Shown here: one piece after another, positions 19,453 through 26,456 of the stretch
Layout: each line of letters begins with the position of its first letter
Numbering within the stretch: position 1 is the first letter of the stretch
Assembly: GCA_965223865.1 (NCBI GenBank)
Contig: OZ245020.1
Coordinates: 512,001 to 576,000, forward strand
Source: Nitrosarchaeum sp.
GTDB lineage: Archaea; Thermoproteota; Nitrososphaeria; Nitrososphaerales; Nitrosopumilaceae
Direction of reading: 5' to 3'
DNA: 64,000 nucleotides
Made by a program: the position numbers and the translations under genes
Notes under the pieces: model-generated
The model's database searches: none
Told to the model about the DNA's origin: nothing
The model's input: only the letters and a program-made list of their open reading frames with translations

Positions 19453-20607
19453 GTGGAAAAGGTTTGTGTTCTTGGTGCCGGTAGCACGAAATATGGAAAA
19501 TTACCTGATAGCATTGCAGATATCACTACTCAGGCGTCAGTTTCAGCAATAGAAAGCGCAGGAATTGACCCAAAAGAAGTCAAAGCATCCTATATTTCTA
19601 ATGTATTTGGAGTTGCTGATAAACAGGTACATATCGGACCTGTTTTAATGAGTAGGCTGGGAATTCCAGATAAACCATCTTTAACAATAGAATCTGCCTG
19701 TGGAAGCGGCTCAGTATCATTTAGAGAAGCTTATGCAAATGTTGCGGCAGGATTTTATGATTGTCTACTTGTAACTGGAGTTGAAAAAGTAACTCATACT
19801 GGAACCGAATGGACAACAACATACTTTGCATATTGTTCAGACTTTTTCTACGAAGGTCAAGCTGGTGCATCATTTCCTGGATTGTTTGCATCGATGGCAA
19901 GAGCTTACTTAACAGAGTTTGATGCAACTGAAGAAGACTTTGCAAGAGTTGCAGTAAAAAATCATGACAATGGCGTACTAAATCCAAAAGCTCACATGCA
20001 GAAGAAAATTACAGTTGATGATGTAATGAATTCTGCAGTTGTTGCTAGTCCTCTAAAACTTTATGATTGCTGTCCATTTTCAGATGGTGCAAGTTCTGTA
20101 ATATTGTGTTCAGAAAAGTTTGCAAAAGAACACGGTGGAGATTATGTTGAAGTAATTGGTTCAGGTAGGGGTGGTTCACCAGCTGCATTACAAGGTCGTG
20201 AACATATGACTACAATTCCAAGTACAAAGATTGCAGCTGAATCTGCATACAAGATGGCAGGAATTACTCCAAAAGATGTTGACTTTGCAGAAGTACATGA
20301 CTGCTTTACAATTGCAGAAGTTGTAGATACAGAGGACTTGGGATTCTTTGAAAAAGGAAAAGGTATAGAAGCTGTTCGTGAAGGTAAAACAAAATTAAAT
20401 TCTGACATTTCAATAAATCCATCAGGAGGTTTAAAATCAAAAGGACATCCAATCGGAGCTACAGGTGTAGGTCAAGTAGTAGAAGTATTCGATCAACTAA
20501 CTGGTAAAGCTGGTGAAAGAACTGTTAAAGATGCAAAGATTGGTTTAACCCATAACTTTGGTGCAACTGGAGCAAGTTGCGCTGTTCATGTATTCCAGAG
20601 TGTATAA
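19453..20607 (+). CDS. acetyl-CoA acetyltransferase (archaeal thiolase)
   Basis: ESACGSG, AEVHDCF, KGHPIGATG. Confidence 0.93.
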   Translation: MEKVCVLGAGSTKYGKLPDSIADITTQASVSAIESAGIDPKEVKASYISNVFGVADKQVHIGPVLMSRLGIPDKPSLTIESACGSGSVSFREAYANVAAGFYDCLLVTGVEKVTHTGTEWTTTYFAYCSDFFYEGQAGASFPGLFASMARAYLTEFDATEEDFARVAVKNHDNGVLNPKAHMQKKITVDDVMNSAVVASPLKLYDCCPFSDGASSVILCSEKFAKEHGGDYVEVIGSGRGGSPAALQGREHMTTIPSTKIAAESAYKMAGITPKDVDFAEVHDCFTIAEVVDTEDLGFFEKGKGIEAVREGKTKLNSDISINPSGGLKSKGHPIGATGVGQVVEVFDQLTGKAGERTVKDAKIGLTHNFGATGASCAVHVFQSV

Positions 20608-20608
20608 A

Positions 20609-20974
20609 ATGTCTATTGAAGAGCAATTGATTGAAATTGCTAAGCAAGGTAAACTCCTAACTCACAAATGTACTAACTGTGGTTATCTACATTTATCTAC
20701 TGCCTATTATTGTCTAAAATGTGGTAGTAAGGGATTTGAGGATGTCATTTTAGAGGGTACAGGTACTGTTGCTACTTATACCATAATTACCGTCGCTCCT
20801 GCAGGCTTTGAAAAATACACACCTTATGCCTTTGTAGTACTCAAATTAGATAATTCAGACCTTAGAATTTCAGGATTTATGGGAGGAATTTCCACTCCTG
20901 CAGATCTTCCAGTTGGAACAAGGGCAAAAATCACCGGTTTTGATGAACGCGGTATCCTAATGGAAAAGCAGTAA
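20609..20974 (+). CDS. DUF35 Zn-ribbon/OB-fold thiolase partner
   Basis: CTNCG...CLKCG, GTVATYT; directly follows thiolase. Confidence 0.88.
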   Translation: MSIEEQLIEIAKQGKLLTHKCTNCGYLHLSTAYYCLKCGSKGFEDVILEGTGTVATYTIITVAPAGFEKYTPYAFVVLKLDNSDLRISGFMGGISTPADLPVGTRAKITGFDERGILMEKQ

Positions 20975-21044
20975 AATTATTTGTTTGAATTATTAAAAAA
21001 ATTCTGAATCGATTCTTAATTATTTTGAAAATTTGATTATTTTC

Positions 21045-21206
21045 ATGTCTGTTGAAGTAACATGTGGAAAGTGTGGAGAAAAGATCACAAACATGAAGAT
21101 GCTAAAATCATTAAAAGATGTAATGAATCCCTATAGTGGAAAATGTCCATCCTGTGGACAGAAGTTATCAAATACTGAATTTTCTCTTGATGTCCAAGAA
21201 AACTGA
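21045..21206 (+). CDS. small Zn-ribbon protein (53 aa, not in ORF track)
   Basis: MSVEVTCGKCG...KCPSCGQKL. Confidence 0.8.
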   Translation: MSVEVTCGKCGEKITNMKMLKSLKDVMNPYSGKCPSCGQKLSNTEFSLDVQEN

Positions 21207-21357
21207 TCTAAATACTTTTCCTATTTGATTACTATAAACTTCAAATGTTATACAAAAATTTTGATTGAAACCAAAACTGATCTAAATACTTTTCCTATTT
21301 GATTACTATAAACTTCAAATGTTATACAAAAATTTTGATTGAAACCAAAACTGATCT
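21199..21357. repeat. 74-bp perfect tandem duplication (2.1 copies)
   Basis: aaaactgatct starts at 21199, 21273 and 21347; intervening sequence identical. Confidence 0.92.
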
Positions 21358-21499
21358 TAAAGTTTTCTTTTTTGATCTTTGAGAATATAAAATATATTAA
21401 AAAATTTTTGAAATTTTGTTTTCTGATCTAAAACTGATCAAAATTCTACTAATATGATCTAGTCACAAATCTTATTTAGTCCTAATTTTTAGCAAAAGC

Positions 21500-23590
21500 A
21501 TGGTATTGAGTGAAGTAACAGAACCAAAGAGAAGTGGAATTCTCCAATCAACATCAAAACGTGTTAGAATGATCTTTTCTGTAATGGCAAGTCCTAACAG
21601 AATAGATATTTTGAGAATATTAAATTCCAAAGGACCTTTGACTTATTCAGAATTAAAATCCCTAGCTGGATTCAAATCAAAAAAAGAGAGTGGTAAATTT
21701 GCCTATCACTTAAGAAAACTATTGAGACAATCTCTTGTTGCCCTAAACAAGTCTGAAAGAAGATACACAATCACAAATCTTGGAAAACTTGTTTTAAGCT
21801 TGGCAAGACAGATTGAAGAAAGATCAATTATTGAAAGCGGAAAAATGTATGTCCGAACTTCACATGAATCAATTGAAGAATTTAATTCTCATAAGATCAT
21901 ACAATCACTTGTCAGAGAAGGAAGTCTTCCATTAGAATTAGCACAAAAAATTACTGAAGAAGTTGAAAATAGAATTTACAAATATCAGACTACCTATCTT
22001 ACAGGCTCACTTATTAGAGAAATGGTCAATTCTGTGCTACTAGAGCATGGTCATGAGGAATATCGTAACAAATTGGCACGCCTAGGCCTGCCTGTTTATG
22101 ATGTTCAAGAGATGCTGACAAATCTAGATAATGTTGATAATGGAGCAGAATGTCTGCTTTTCAATACTGGTCAAAGAGTATTCGCTGAACATCTTCTTAC
22201 AAACATATTGCCAAAAGATGTTGCAGATTCTCATCTTTCAGGAGATTTACATATTACAAATCCAGGAATTTGGTCAATGATTCCTGATACGATATTTGTT
22301 AATGTTAAAGAATTAATTGATGACGGAATTGATCTTGGAGGAAAATATCTTGATGTATCAAGAATTCCCACATCAAAATCACTTGATGAAATTACTTCTT
22401 CACTATCTGTTATTATTTCTCTTCTTTCAAAAGAAGCATCACAAGAGATCGTACTAGAAGGAATTACTCAATTATTTACGAAACATTCAAAAAATCTTGA
22501 AGAACTAGAACAAAAACTTACAAACACATTTGCTACTGCTTCTACAACATCAAAATATAGCAAAGAAAGTACTCATGTTTCAATTAGATTACAACTAGGC
22601 TCCGATACAAAGATCATTAATGCAATTATTAATGCATACAAAAATTACACAAAGATTACACCAAACCCAAAGATTGGTTTGATCATTGATTATGAAAAAG
22701 GAAAAATCTTTGATGTATCAGAAGTACTTGCTGAAATCATCTCAATTGGTGGTAAAGTAATGTTTGCTAAAGGACAAGTATCAAGTCATGGTATAACAAA
22801 TCCTACAACAAAGAGCTCTGGCCCCTTATCAATAACATTACAATCAGTTTCAATTAATCTTCCAAGACTTGCATTTGAATCTAACAAAGATGAAACATAC
22901 TTTAGAGCAAGACTCGCACTATTAATGAAACCAGCATTAGCATCAATGGCATTAAGAAAGAAAGAGATATCTGACCTTACTAGAAGAGGACTCAATCCAA
23001 TACTTGCAAAGAATACTCAATTTATGCAAAGAAGTTCAATGTCACTAAATGTTAATCTCGTTGGTCTAAAAGAAGCTGTATACAATATTCTTGGTTTTCA
23101 AGATAACAAAGAAGGAAAAGAAATTCTTCACAAGGTAATTGAGACTGCAGTAGATGTTGGTGCTAAAAAGGGCAAAGAGATTGGAGATCCTGTAGCCATA
23201 TCCATGACTGAAACTGAAGGCTCTGTGAGGTTTGCCAGTCTTGACGGTGAGAAATACGGCAAGAATTCTGCCCTCAACTCTATGGAAGGCGACTCTTATT
23301 CACAAGGTATAGTAATTAATGCCTCTGAAATAGCCGAATTTACGAACAAAAGTGAGCCTATTGCTGAATGTAACAAATTATCTAAACTGCTTAATGGTGG
23401 TTTACTTGTTACCTTACAAATAGACAAGGATGTCAAATCTGCTGATATCAAAAAATTTATTGAAAAGGCATCAGAGATAACAAATTCATTCCAACCTAAA
23501 AAACATGTGGCAATTTGTGGTGAGTGTGGTTTCAAAGATGAACCATTTGAAGACAAATGTCCAAAGTGTAAATCACCTTACGTTGTCTGA
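21500..23590 (+). CDS. wHTH + ATP-cone + NrdD-like (class III RNR) domain protein lacking the glycyl-radical loop; putative regulator
   Basis: ASPNRIDILRIL..YHLRKL HTH; VRTS..EEFNSHKIIQSL ATP cone; HLSGDLHI, SINLPRLA, VGLKEA, RFA..D.EKYG, NGG, CGECG..CPKC then stop. Confidence 0.8.
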   Translation: MVLSEVTEPKRSGILQSTSKRVRMIFSVMASPNRIDILRILNSKGPLTYSELKSLAGFKSKKESGKFAYHLRKLLRQSLVALNKSERRYTITNLGKLVLSLARQIEERSIIESGKMYVRTSHESIEEFNSHKIIQSLVREGSLPLELAQKITEEVENRIYKYQTTYLTGSLIREMVNSVLLEHGHEEYRNKLARLGLPVYDVQEMLTNLDNVDNGAECLLFNTGQRVFAEHLLTNILPKDVADSHLSGDLHITNPGIWSMIPDTIFVNVKELIDDGIDLGGKYLDVSRIPTSKSLDEITSSLSVIISLLSKEASQEIVLEGITQLFTKHSKNLEELEQKLTNTFATASTTSKYSKESTHVSIRLQLGSDTKIINAIINAYKNYTKITPNPKIGLIIDYEKGKIFDVSEVLAEIISIGGKVMFAKGQVSSHGITNPTTKSSGPLSITLQSVSINLPRLAFESNKDETYFRARLALLMKPALASMALRKKEISDLTRRGLNPILAKNTQFMQRSSMSLNVNLVGLKEAVYNILGFQDNKEGKEILHKVIETAVDVGAKKGKEIGDPVAISMTETEGSVRFASLDGEKYGKNSALNSMEGDSYSQGIVINASEIAEFTNKSEPIAECNKLSKLLNGGLLVTLQIDKDVKSADIKKFIEKASEITNSFQPKKHVAICGECGFKDEPFEDKCPKCKSPYVV

Positions 23591-23804
23591 AATCCGTAAA
23601 TGAAAAACTTGTTCCGATCTTTTCAGAAAAGATTTTGATCCTTTTCAGATGTCCGATCATCGTTATTTATTAACAAAGTTATGCCATTATGAAATTCATA
23701 GTAGCGGTGTAAAAAATATTGACTCATGAACGCGACAAGATCAAAATTTTTCGAGCACACAAGTTATATCCACATTCATCATATGCCTTGCGGGGAGATT
23801 ATAA

Positions 23805-26456
23805 TTGGATAATTCACAAATAGAAAATACTATCAATGAGATCCGTAAGCGCAGTGGCGCAGTAACGGCTTTCAATAAAGATAAAATTTCAAATGCCATT
23901 TACAGGGCATTGGCAGCCACCTCTAAAGCCGATCGTGGCCTGGCTGATCAACTCGCAGCAAAAGTTGTTGATAAATTAGTAGAACAAGGATTTACAAGCT
24001 CGCGAACACCTAGTGTTGAAGATATTCAAGATATTGTAGAATCAACTTTAATCGATAGCGGTAACAGCGATATCGCAAAAGCATACATCGTCTATAGACA
24101 TGAAAGAAGAAAATTAAGAGATGAAAAAATGAAAATCTTAAACGCAAAGAATCTAGATCCAGTATCCAAGAAATTTGATCTAAACTGCTTGAGAGTATTA
24201 GCATCTAGATATCTTTTCAGAAATGGAAAAAATGAGATCATTGAGACACCGACTGAAATGTTTGAAAGAGTGGCAATTTTAGTTGGTATAGGTGACCTAT
24301 TGTATGATGCTCAATTATTTGACAAGTCAGGGAACATTACTCAAAACATCGATGAAGCAACAACATACCTTGAAAAACTAGACAACTTTAATTACAAATT
24401 CAAAATTGGCAACTACTTTCTAAACAAGTGGCATTTCCGATCCTTGATCAATCATTATGTTACTCTTGCTAGCAAGGGTCAGATGAAAATGAGTTTCAAA
24501 GATCTCTTGACAATGATTGCAGCCAAGAAATTCGATAATTACGAAGATAAAATTACCGAATACTTTGATCTGATGACCTCTCAAGATTTCCTGCCAAACT
24601 CACCAACAATGATGAATGCTGGTGGAAGACTAGGTCAGCTTTCTGCATGTTTTGTACTTGGAATGGAAGATGGAATGGAAGAGATCATGAAATCAACCTC
24701 TGATGCAGCTCTGATCTTCAAATCAGGAGGTGGAGTCGGAATTAATTACTCCGATCTACGTGAAGAGGGTGATATCGTAGCATCAACATCGGGCGTTGCA
24801 TCAGGACCAGTGTCTTTCATGAATATTATCAACACTGTTACTGAAGTTGTCAAACAAGGTGGTAAGAGAAGAGGAGCCAATATGGGCATTATTGAGGCAT
24901 GGCATCCCGACGTTGAAAAGTTCATTACAAACAAAACTGAACCCGGTGTTCTTGAGAACTTTAATGTTAGTGTTGGAGTTTGGGAAGACTTTTGGCATGC
25001 ACTTGTAAACACTGATGACGGTAAGTACATTCTTAGAAGTCCACGTGATAAAAAACCTGTTAGAGAAATTAATGCACACCAACTAATTGATTTGATTGCA
25101 TTATCTGCATGGAAAAGTGCAGAACCTGGATTGATCTTCTTTGATCAAATTAACAAATACAATGTGTTTGCAAAAGCAAGACAAAATCCACTAAGAGCAA
25201 CAAATCCATGTGGAGAACAAAGTCTCTATCCATACGAATCATGTAATCTTGGTTCTATCAACTTGGTAAATCTTGTAAAAAGAAAAGCTGATGGAGAATA
25301 CGAATTTGATTGGCAGAGATATGAAGAAACAATTAGAAAGACCACAAGATTCCTAGATAACATTATTGATGTAAATCATTATCCAGTACCAGAAATTAAT
25401 GTAGCATCAAAAGAATCAAGAAGAATTGGATTAGGTGTAATGGGGGTTGCAGATTTACTATACAAACTACGAATTCCATACAACTCTAAAGAAGGATATG
25501 ATCTACAATCAAAATTATCTGAAGCACTAACATACTATTCCATGGAAGAAAGTGTTGCCCTTGCAAAATCTCGTGGTGAATTCCCACTATGTTCCAAGAC
25601 AGAATATCCTGAAGGAAAGATCCCTGTTGCAGGTTATTATGAAAAGCCAAAAGAACTACACTCCTACGAATGGGATGCACTAATTGAAAAAATCAAGAAA
25701 CATGGAATTAGAAATGTTCTGACAACAACTGTTGCTCCAACAGGTACACTGTCTATGATTGCAGATTGTTCAAATGGAATGGAACCTGCATTTGCTTTAG
25801 TGTTTGAAAAGAGAGTTACTGTTGGAAGATTTTTCTATACTAACAAAATCATTGAAGAAGTCCTTAAAGAAAATGGTCTATACACAGATGAAATATTAGC
25901 CAAAATTGCAGACAATTATGGTTCTCTTAAAGGAATTCCTGAAATTCCAGAATGGATGCAAAAAGTCTTTGTAACTGCAATGGATATTCATTGGGCAGAT
26001 CATCTCATAGCACAATCTGTATGGCAAGATTGGATTGGAAATGCAATAGCCAAGACCATTAACATGCCTTATGATGTTACTGCAGAAGATGTAAAATCTG
26101 CATATCTATTGGCTCATGAACTAGGTCTAAAAGGAATTACAGTATATCGTGATGGCTCGAGACACAAACAAGTACTCCACATGACAAGTGAAAATGCAGA
26201 AAAAACATTTGATGTAACGCCAAGTCAATACGTTACAGATTATGTTACCACAAAAATAACAAATCCATATATCAAATCCCAAGTTAATGCTGCACTTGCA
26301 TTAAAAATTCATGATGAGGAAATCAAATCAGAATCTCATCAAACTGAAGAAATCTCTGAAGAACGCTTATGTCCAACATGCAAAAACAATCTTGTCTTTG
26401 TAGAAGGTTGCAGTATTTGCATTGAATGTGGATTTAGTGGTTGTACTTCAGGATAG
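23805..26456 (+). CDS. nrdJ: adenosylcobalamin-dependent class II ribonucleotide reductase with N-terminal ATP cone
   Basis: PNSPTMMNAG, LSACFV, TNPCGEQ, CNLGSINL, APTGT, C-terminal CPTC..CIECG. Confidence 0.95.
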   Translation: MDNSQIENTINEIRKRSGAVTAFNKDKISNAIYRALAATSKADRGLADQLAAKVVDKLVEQGFTSSRTPSVEDIQDIVESTLIDSGNSDIAKAYIVYRHERRKLRDEKMKILNAKNLDPVSKKFDLNCLRVLASRYLFRNGKNEIIETPTEMFERVAILVGIGDLLYDAQLFDKSGNITQNIDEATTYLEKLDNFNYKFKIGNYFLNKWHFRSLINHYVTLASKGQMKMSFKDLLTMIAAKKFDNYEDKITEYFDLMTSQDFLPNSPTMMNAGGRLGQLSACFVLGMEDGMEEIMKSTSDAALIFKSGGGVGINYSDLREEGDIVASTSGVASGPVSFMNIINTVTEVVKQGGKRRGANMGIIEAWHPDVEKFITNKTEPGVLENFNVSVGVWEDFWHALVNTDDGKYILRSPRDKKPVREINAHQLIDLIALSAWKSAEPGLIFFDQINKYNVFAKARQNPLRATNPCGEQSLYPYESCNLGSINLVNLVKRKADGEYEFDWQRYEETIRKTTRFLDNIIDVNHYPVPEINVASKESRRIGLGVMGVADLLYKLRIPYNSKEGYDLQSKLSEALTYYSMEESVALAKSRGEFPLCSKTEYPEGKIPVAGYYEKPKELHSYEWDALIEKIKKHGIRNVLTTTVAPTGTLSMIADCSNGMEPAFALVFEKRVTVGRFFYTNKIIEEVLKENGLYTDEILAKIADNYGSLKGIPEIPEWMQKVFVTAMDIHWADHLIAQSVWQDWIGNAIAKTINMPYDVTAEDVKSAYLLAHELGLKGITVYRDGSRHKQVLHMTSENAEKTFDVTPSQYVTDYVTTKITNPYIKSQVNAALALKIHDEEIKSESHQTEEISEERLCPTCKNNLVFVEGCSICIECGFSGCTSG

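Follow-up and report, generated by a model that had tools for sequence, protein, structure and literature searches.

The window analysed here, a stretch of 64,000 nucleotides from Nitrosarchaeum sp. (contig OZ245020.1, positions 512,001 to 576,000), holds two co-directional genes between positions 21,500 and 26,456. The downstream gene is nrdJ, which encodes an adenosylcobalamin-dependent class II ribonucleotide reductase (RNR) and scores 724 bits with TIGR02504 (cut-off 399.95); its product carries the Pfam barrel of class I/II enzymes (PF02867, 491.8 bits) and an ATP-cone (79.1 bits). The upstream gene, here called REG, encodes a protein that joins an ArsR-like winged helix-turn-helix (wHTH), an ATP-cone, a body resembling the class III RNR NrdD and a C-terminal Zn ribbon (Table 1). 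Judged by its sequence, REG is catalytically dead, and we consider it on balance probable that the protein is a pseudo-RNR which acts as a transcription factor on RNR genes, in the manner of the bacterial regulator NrdR.

REG is homologous to NrdD over the whole body, as represented by the structures from T4 (1h78), T. maritima (4coi), P. copri (8p23) and S. thermophilus (9d3x). The NrdD-like motifs named in the preliminary description of this DNA are all found in the translation, in the order given there (HLSGDLHI, SINLPRLA, VGLKEA, RFASLDGEKYG, NGG and CGECG...CPKCKSPYVV). The Pfam family NRDD (PF13597) matches REG with 90.2 bits (cut-off 26.2), in agreement with a homologous body of the ten-stranded alpha/beta barrel type; the best-matching part, aa 441-692, corresponds to profile positions 275-529 of 562, and the last 33 positions, those of the glycyl-radical loop, are missing. 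All NCBIfam NrdD equivalogs remain far below their cut-offs (best TIGR02487, 83.5 bits vs 326.35). A search of the PDB with the single REG sequence is near-insignificant (E 0.1) and a profile search is needed: the profile of the 58-member family retrieves the PDB NrdDs with E-values of 4e-39 to 3e-31. An AlphaFold2 model of REG built on the 58-sequence family alignment has a mean predicted local distance difference test score of 87.8 and a predicted template modelling (TM) score of 0.77. With this model, the best Foldseek matches are the class III RNRs of S. thermophilus, T. maritima, P. copri and T4 (E 6e-20 to 1e-12, TM 0.5-0.66). The NrdD fold of REG is confirmed at the level of a predicted structure. 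The N-terminal wHTH passes HTH_20 (33 bits vs cut-off 27) and DUF7347 (40.8 vs 27.6) in Pfam, stays under the NCBIfam metalloregulator cut-off (23.7 vs 55) and has weak PDB matches to SmtB, ArsR, MarR and HlyU. The ATP-cone (PF03477) scores 33.9 bits against a cut-off of 25.8, and 38.5 bits in the whole-genome search.

Class III RNRs carry a C-terminal glycyl-radical loop, R-x-x-G-Y, after the Zn ribbon. REG stops at CPKCKSPYVV, 7 residues past the last CxxC of its ribbon, and the loop is absent, as the preliminary description had stated. To place the other catalytic residues, REG was aligned (MAFFT) with E. coli NrdD, relatives and five NrdDs of Bathyarchaeia; the E. coli positions were checked on the sequence and fall on C175, C384, G681 and the four Zn cysteines. 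The radical cysteine C384 (PMGCRSF) of E. coli NrdD is aligned with the isoleucine of SSHGIT in REG, which bears out the earlier statement that the finger-loop cysteine is lost; in the comparison of the family profile with the PDB, the consensus g-l-r sits on the G-C-R of 9d3x and 8p23. The beta-A cysteine C175 is aligned with threonine, HYHD with HITN, so that the HxHD motif is not kept, and G681 has no counterpart. In a survey of 1,375 class III sequences, MGCR and MCCR are the two dominant finger-loop motifs and the beta-A cysteine is kept in 92.6% of the sequences (PMC9669993). The HxHD motif of NrdD is reported to hold the substrate triphosphate (PMC11226230). Among 22 REG-like rows, neither HxH[DE] nor the beta-A cysteine occurs once (0/22 each); the finger-loop cysteine is present in 3 and a glycine at the aligned column of the radical loop in 5, and no row has both. 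All four catalytic features are present in 6/6 bona fide NrdDs.

The host genome (2.01 Mb, 99.98% complete) provides no partner that might restore such an activity. The profile search finds a single NRDD locus and no second NrdD. NrdG, which the preliminary description had found missing from the window, has no match over cut-off genome-wide either (TIGR02495, best 48.2 bits vs 131.15; TIGR02491, best 35.1 vs 126.1). The best NrdG-profile match is a 237-aa radical S-adenosylmethionine (SAM) open reading frame (ORF), which is probably QueE because its neighbour looks, by eye, like what we take to be GTP cyclohydrolase I. A separately encoded glycyl-radical domain plus activase had been named beforehand as the observation that would speak against the loss of activity; both were looked for across the genome and neither was found, the Gly_radical domain (PF01228) being without any match. 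NrdR (TIGR00244) likewise has no match in the whole genome. The class I/II barrel (PF02867) has one match genome-wide, which is nrdJ, and nrdJ is the only RNR of this genome. With four catalytic features lost, the equivalogs under cut-off and no activase, the earlier claim that REG is catalytically dead is supported by every test that was run, within what sequence comparison can tell.

Within the class Nitrososphaeria, REG is found in 182 of 201 genomes (a tally that takes in one unpublished genome, G132) and in 160 of the 161 that are of high quality. The exception is family f7, where the protein is mostly absent and 14 genomes yield 2 weak matches. Close relatives are 85-97% identical to REG along the full length. 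Against 23 Nitrososphaeria-type representatives, mean identity is 76% for the wHTH, 66% for the ATP-cone, 30-41% for the barrel parts and 33% for the Zn ribbon. The order of conservation is thus reversed from that of an enzyme, since the wHTH and the ATP-cone are better kept than the barrel. Columns that are invariant in the 58 sequences cluster in aa 65-248, with the wHTH residues G65, Y69, H70, Y89 and G95 among them, and otherwise comprise N453, D582 and the four Zn cysteines. REG is not a decaying pseudogene and is under selection. The protein collection holds more than 4,128 relatives. The best 120 of these all have the four-domain make-up and are named either "helix-turn-helix domain-containing protein" or "anaerobic ribonucleoside-triphosphate reductase", the latter being the mis-annotation that had been anticipated.

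The ATP-cone of REG differs from those of its neighbours and homologs. In an alignment of six sequences, including NrdJ, Bathyarchaeia NrdD and E. coli NrdD, the cones of these three read V-(R/M)-K-R-D-G; REG and its relatives read V-R-T-S. The VRKRDG of NrdJ and Bathyarchaeia NrdD is aligned with VRTSHE in REG, which lacks the K-R pair, and REG has a 7-residue deletion in the last helix of the cone, before the terminal Y-R; in P. copri NrdD this helix bears the other basic residues of the site. In P. copri NrdD, Lys7 and Arg8 are reported to hold two dATP molecules together with Arg87, Arg91 and Tyr83 (PMC11226230). Family members show V-R-T-S almost without exception, so that the site, though altered, is a conserved one. 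REG may have a ligand other than ATP/dATP, or sensing may take place in the barrel. Sensing of deoxyribonucleoside triphosphates (dNTPs) through the cone was the weakest claim of the preliminary description: the cone as such stands, given its profile match, whereas its K-R pair is replaced and seven residues are missing. The genome encodes a third ATP-cone protein, a 308-aa ORF (G000:C1:1272164-1273090; L148:1381-2307) in which an ATP-cone (28.2 bits) is accompanied by an AF1548-like domain at the C-terminus; a weak match to the nuclease family Mrr_cat reaches 20.4 bits and narrowly misses the cut-off of 21. It would be an ATP-cone joined to a nuclease-like fold.

Table 1. Features of REG, nrdJ and their flanking regions (positions in the window).
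Feature	Position	Strand	Description or basis
REG gene	21500..23590	+	696-aa ORF: wHTH, ATP-cone, predicted dead NrdD-like body, Zn ribbon
ArsR-like winged helix-turn-helix, aa 25-105	21572..21814	+	Pfam DUF7347 aa 25-99, HTH_20 aa 29-81
Divergent ATP-cone, aa 116-188	21845..22063	+	Invariant V118-R119, then T-S; Pfam 33.9 bits
NrdD-like alpha/beta barrel body without catalytic residues	22097..23479	+	Alignments, profile-vs-PDB match
C-terminal Zn ribbon (C673, C676, C687, C690) and stop codon	23516..23590	+	Four Cys invariant in 58 sequences
nrdJ	23805..26456	+	883-aa ORF, TTG start; adenosylcobalamin-dependent class II RNR with its own canonical ATP-cone
REG promoter region	21199..21479		Seven GATC boxes and TATA-like TCTTATTTAG
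REG promoter GATC boxes	21205, 21279, 21353, 21374, 21425, 21436, 21456		Spacings 74, 74, 21, 51, 11, 20 bp
TATA-like TCTTATTTAG	21470-21479		About 26 nt before the REG ATG; putative promoter element
REG-nrdJ spacer	23591..23804		Four GATC boxes, palindrome, TATA-like element, GGGGAG
Spacer GATC boxes	23616, 23637, 23655, 23739		Spacings 21, 18, 84
Palindrome TATGAAATTCATA, 13 nt	23688-23700		In the REG-nrdJ spacer
TATA-like TTATATCC	23764-23771		In the spacer; putative promoter element
GGGGAG	23792-23797		Before the nrdJ TTG start; putative ribosome-binding site
Small Zn-ribbon-like ORF, 57 aa, two CxxC pairs	21033..21206	+	5' of REG; membership in the system uncertain

The family extends beyond this class. 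A representative search gives 1,214 matches at E <= 1e-3, and many of these representatives are proteins of 700-800 aa with the same wHTH and cone and an NRDD match that runs out to profile positions 538-562. Most of the long relatives keep decayed tails that resemble the radical loop (RSSATY, RISNKF, RVMSIY and others). A scan of species genomes with the alignment of the long form yields 80 loci, 73 of them titled Bathyarchaeia or Bathyarchaeota. The REG family thus spans the whole class Nitrososphaeria and the Bathyarchaeia. In a quick maximum-likelihood tree of 34 rows, which contains few bona fide NrdDs and has E. coli on a long branch, the 28 REG-like rows group in a single clade (Shimodaira-Hasegawa-like approximate likelihood ratio test 99), and the tail-less Nitrososphaeria type, borne on a long stem, falls inside the long forms. 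ESM Atlas clusters with an HTH and NRDD make-up occur in Promethearchaeota and Nanobdellota and are leads only.

The linkage to nrdJ that was first seen in this window is retained in related genomes. In 30 of 30 close loci nrdJ lies directly 3' of REG on the same strand, although at a contig end in one of them it is seen as its first 23 residues only. In 15 of 20 diverse loci nrdJ is found within 6 kb of REG, with 10 co-directional (one of these being a weak 32% match), 4 convergent and 1 divergent arrangement. In Bathyarchaeia the RNR gene beside the REG-like gene is a different one: a full-length second NrdD adjoins it in 17 of the 80 loci, matching the Pfam profile from position 1 to 560-562 of 562 with 481-643 bits, and in one locus this NrdD is followed by a radical-SAM/Fer4_12 gene. 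The aspartate carbamoyltransferase gene pyrB occurs in 47 of the 80 Bathyarchaeia loci (L065-L144), and pyrI was seen in L065; these neighbours link the REG family to pyrimidine synthesis as well as to RNR. Linkage to nucleotide metabolism is therefore maintained while the class of the partner RNR changes, from class II in aerobes to class III in anaerobes, and hence a regulator fits better than a subunit of either enzyme.

Both regions upstream of the two genes are rich in GATC boxes. Among 935 ORF-free segments of the genome, the segment at 20975-21499 ranks 2nd for GATC (8 in 525 bp) and the REG-nrdJ spacer 5th. GATC[AT]AAA boxes number 5 in the REG upstream region, the most of any ORF-free segment, and GATCAAAAT has 3 copies in the 739 bp of both spacers against 18 in all 334,119 ORF-free bases. 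Upstream of REG lies a perfect 74-nt tandem duplication (window 21199-21346) with one AAAACTGATCTAAA box per copy. The closest relative (L015) carries a similar, slightly diverged 5' repeat, which suggests that the box array grows by duplication. In 27 related loci each of the two regions holds 3-11 GATC, and in 22 aligned spacers of simple length the boxes lie in blocks of at least 90% conservation, with varying sequence between them. Distances between neighbouring boxes in the relatives pile up at 10-11, 20-21, 32, 42, 51, 74 and 84 bp, and for a period of 10.5 bp their vector strength reaches 0.44 and 0.56, compared with 0.02 genome-wide. Such an arrangement on one face of the helix is what an oligomeric DNA-binding protein would use and recalls the phased boxes of NrdR.

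An inverted repeat, AAAGATTTTGATC / GATCAAAATTTTT, lies in the REG-nrdJ spacer; a palindrome common to both promoters was not found, boxes of the GATCAAAAT type being all that they have in common. Words such as AAACTGATC occur 5' of REG and not 5' of nrdJ in the host genome. A CACAAGT-TATA element common to both promoters is not supported in this genome, and a fuller box motif than GATC with A/T flanks was rejected since the matrix mostly reflects the orienting of sites by A-richness in an AT-rich genome. Whole-genome GATC density, with coding DNA included, is not discriminating, and Rfam gives no match to a riboswitch or other known RNA in either spacer at E up to 1. Outside Nitrosopumilaceae, seven of the 20 diverse loci (L045, L047, L048, L050, L051, L058 and L063) have in common an unusually invariant ATTTTACAAAGTnnTTTTAAT about 40-60 nt before the start of REG, which is probably the core promoter of REG there. 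The segment that ranks first for GATC among the ORF-free segments (G000:C1:109212-109348, L149/L150; 5 GATC in 137 bp) is the promoter region between the divergent genes for GINS (Sld5 family, 183 aa, 39.8 bits) and the small subunit of RFC. It carries the element CGGATCGATCAATTC...GAGATCAATTGATCCT, conserved by a by-eye count in about 22 of 30 Nitrosopumilaceae genomes, and with it the palindrome GATCAATTGATC, which occurs once in the genome. A DNA-synthesis regulon of wider scope may account for this, or else another factor whose targets include nrd.

Several further features surround the two genes. In all 30 of the 30 close loci the small ORF 5' of REG has an OB-fold gene on its other side, and it lies 5' of REG in 9 of the 20 diverse loci (L045, L050, L051 and L058-L063), as seen by tblastn; in a Pfam scan of it every match stays under threshold. 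Further upstream (window 19453-20974) is a thiolase gene (384 aa) followed by a ChsH2/DUF35-type gene with Zn ribbon and OB-fold (138 aa), a pair that many genomes of the class keep next to REG. In two metatranscriptome contig sets (X19 and X20), which derive from relatives and may include DNA, there are fragments with 90-99% likeness to REG and nrdJ; one piece spans the REG stop codon into the spacer, and neither a transcription start nor co-transcription can be read from the contigs. Elsewhere in the genome, four identical ORF-free segments of 1,912 bp recur every 2,584 bp on contig C4 (602-10265) and point to a large tandem repeat.

How does REG compare with known systems? Like many NrdDs, it has an N-terminal ATP-cone and a C-terminal Zn ribbon with four cysteines. 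Unlike NrdD, it has neither the radical and beta-A cysteines nor HxHD, glycyl loop or genomic activase, it carries an additional N-terminal wHTH, and REG-like proteins form a clade of their own. The likeness to NrdR concerns the proposed job: both combine a DNA-binding module with an ATP-cone, are encoded beside RNR genes and are associated with repeated boxes in nrd promoters in helical phase. NrdR is reported to sense nucleotides via its ATP-cone (PMC9110341), and two further sources describe NrdR boxes as two 16-bp sites with a linker of 15-16 bp (PMC13584703) and a dependence of NrdR on helix phase (PMC12051234). NrdR consists of an N-terminal Zn ribbon and an ATP-cone in about 150 aa; REG, at 696 aa, contains a complete RNR body that is predicted to be dead, its DNA-binding part would be the wHTH, and its Zn ribbon is C-terminal only. 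The two are not homologous as wholes, the REG cone lacks the K-R pair and the boxes are GATC-centred, not NrdR boxes. A related logic is known from RbkR, a bifunctional archaeal regulator that joins riboflavin kinase to a DNA-binding domain (PMC5397151): a metabolic enzyme fold with a DNA-binding domain controls genes of its own pathway, as we propose for REG. RbkR, however, is still an enzyme, while REG has lost its chemistry and comes from a different fold. With ArsR/SmtB-type regulators, REG has in common the N-terminal domain that passes HTH_20 and DUF7347, here fused to about 590 further residues. A full-text search of a library with few subscription journals found no paper on a wHTH-NrdD fusion, DUF7347 or the Nitrosopumilus "anaerobic RNR", and neither the RNRdb paper nor the RNR gene-transfer paper mentions these organisms.

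A role as a regulator is strongly suggested because the wHTH is the best-kept part of REG, the linkage to RNR genes survives inversions and a change of RNR class, and the GATC boxes are phased; the absence of NrdR from the genome lends it further support. In this respect the earlier proposal of an RNR scaffold reused as a regulator has gained ground on the sequence level, less so its sensing mechanism. On this reading, an ArsR-like winged helix was added at the N-terminus of an ancestral archaeal NrdD with an ATP-cone, whose radical chemistry then disappeared; in the Nitrososphaeria lineage the whole glycyl-radical tail would have been lost as well. What would remain is a DNA-binding head, a modified ATP-cone and the barrel. 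By homology, the barrel probably still dimerises, and its former effector or substrate sites may have kept the ability to bind nucleotides. REG would then bind the phased box arrays in its own promoter and in that of the neighbouring RNR gene (nrdJ here, nrdD in Bathyarchaeia), and would adjust RNR expression to the cell's nucleotide status, which is the job of NrdR in bacteria. A further-reaching form of this proposal is possible, though doubtful: in ammonia-oxidising archaea REG could stand as master switch over a whole DNA-synthesis regulon, made up of its own gene, nrdJ and perhaps GINS/RFC, and could sense the dNTP pool with allosteric pockets that the dead RNR has retained and not with a canonical ATP-cone. 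The family would then be the ancient archaeal counterpart of NrdR, derived from NrdD before the split of Bathyarchaeia and Nitrososphaeria, and may also occur in Asgard and DPANN archaea.

Several points weigh against a regulator of RNR genes. We infer DNA binding by REG, its ligand, the GATC boxes as its targets and the sign of its regulation, and for the binding and the ligand this counts against the proposal. Canonical ATP/dATP sensing is doubtful because T-S stands in place of K-R and 7 residues of the cone are gone. Linkage is incomplete, as nrdJ is not within 6 kb of REG in 5 of the 20 diverse loci and nrdD is adjacent in only 17 of the 80 Bathyarchaeia loci. The figures for conservation and phasing overstate the support, since the relatives compared are kin and not independent. 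In the 20 diverse loci outside Nitrosopumilaceae no GATC boxes were seen, though the wHTH is well conserved there; the operator is then something other than these boxes, or else there has been drift in what is recognised. Finally, the GINS/RFC promoter is also rich in GATC, so the boxes might belong to a replication-wide factor other than REG.

This last point leads to an alternative in which REG does regulate by binding DNA but has a regulon that is wider or another one altogether (DNA replication or pyrimidine/nucleotide metabolism), with nrdJ as one target or none, or in which the boxes belong to another factor and REG is a member of its regulon. The position of the genome's most GATC-rich ORF-free segment between GINS and RFC, with its conserved element, would suit this, as would the fact that pyrB is the commoner neighbour in Bathyarchaeia (47/80 vs 17/80 for nrdD). 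Yet GATCAATT, the element at RFC, resembles the GATC[AT]AAA boxes at nrd in little beyond GATC(A), it is the REG promoter that leads all ORF-free segments for GATC[AT]AAA, and the linkage to RNR genes persists across two archaeal classes. We regard this alternative as unlikely.

Pseudoenzymes often regulate active paralogues, and by this general habit REG could also act on proteins, as a nucleotide-binding pseudo-subunit that modulates or scaffolds a working RNR (for example as a heterodimer with NrdD in Bathyarchaeia) or that buffers nucleotides, with the winged helix as a protein-contact module. The paralogous NrdD next to the gene in 17 of the 80 Bathyarchaeia loci and the full-length barrel with its high-confidence NrdD fold are compatible with this, but Nitrososphaeria have no NrdD partner to offer and NrdJ belongs to a different class. 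ArsR-type factors use helix and wing on DNA, and these are the parts of the wHTH, the most conserved domain of REG, that contain its invariant residues; the conserved repeated boxes in both promoters are likewise not expected from a purely protein-level role, which we consider improbable. Even harder to maintain is an REG that is still an RNR and obtains its radical by an unusual route, such as a separate radical domain or adenosylcobalamin. The database label of anaerobic ribonucleoside-triphosphate reductase and a few Bathyarchaeia relatives that keep either GCR or the tail glycine point in that direction. Radical cysteine, beta-A cysteine, HxHD and glycyl loop are all missing from REG, however, the genome has no NrdG, Gly_radical domain or second NrdD, no examined relative has both the cysteine and the glycine, and the barrel is the least conserved part. 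An active REG is extremely improbable, and on the alignments close to refuted.

Ammonia-oxidising archaea are among the most abundant microbes in sea and soil, and nrdJ is their sole route to DNA precursors. To our knowledge, the control of RNR expression in archaea is largely unknown. NrdR is reported for most bacteria and for only some archaea (PMC9110341). A near-universal, well-conserved candidate regulator derived from an inactivated RNR would give the question of archaeal RNR control a concrete, testable object. Thousands of database entries carry the label of anaerobic RNR, which falsely suggests that these obligate aerobes have an anaerobic pathway to dNTPs and may lead metabolic reconstructions of these archaea astray. 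Beyond what had been described before, the REG family proves to be much wider than Nitrosopumilus, and most of its long relatives carry a decayed radical tail. If the proposed role is true, REG would offer a clear example of how an enzyme scaffold can be turned into a sensor.

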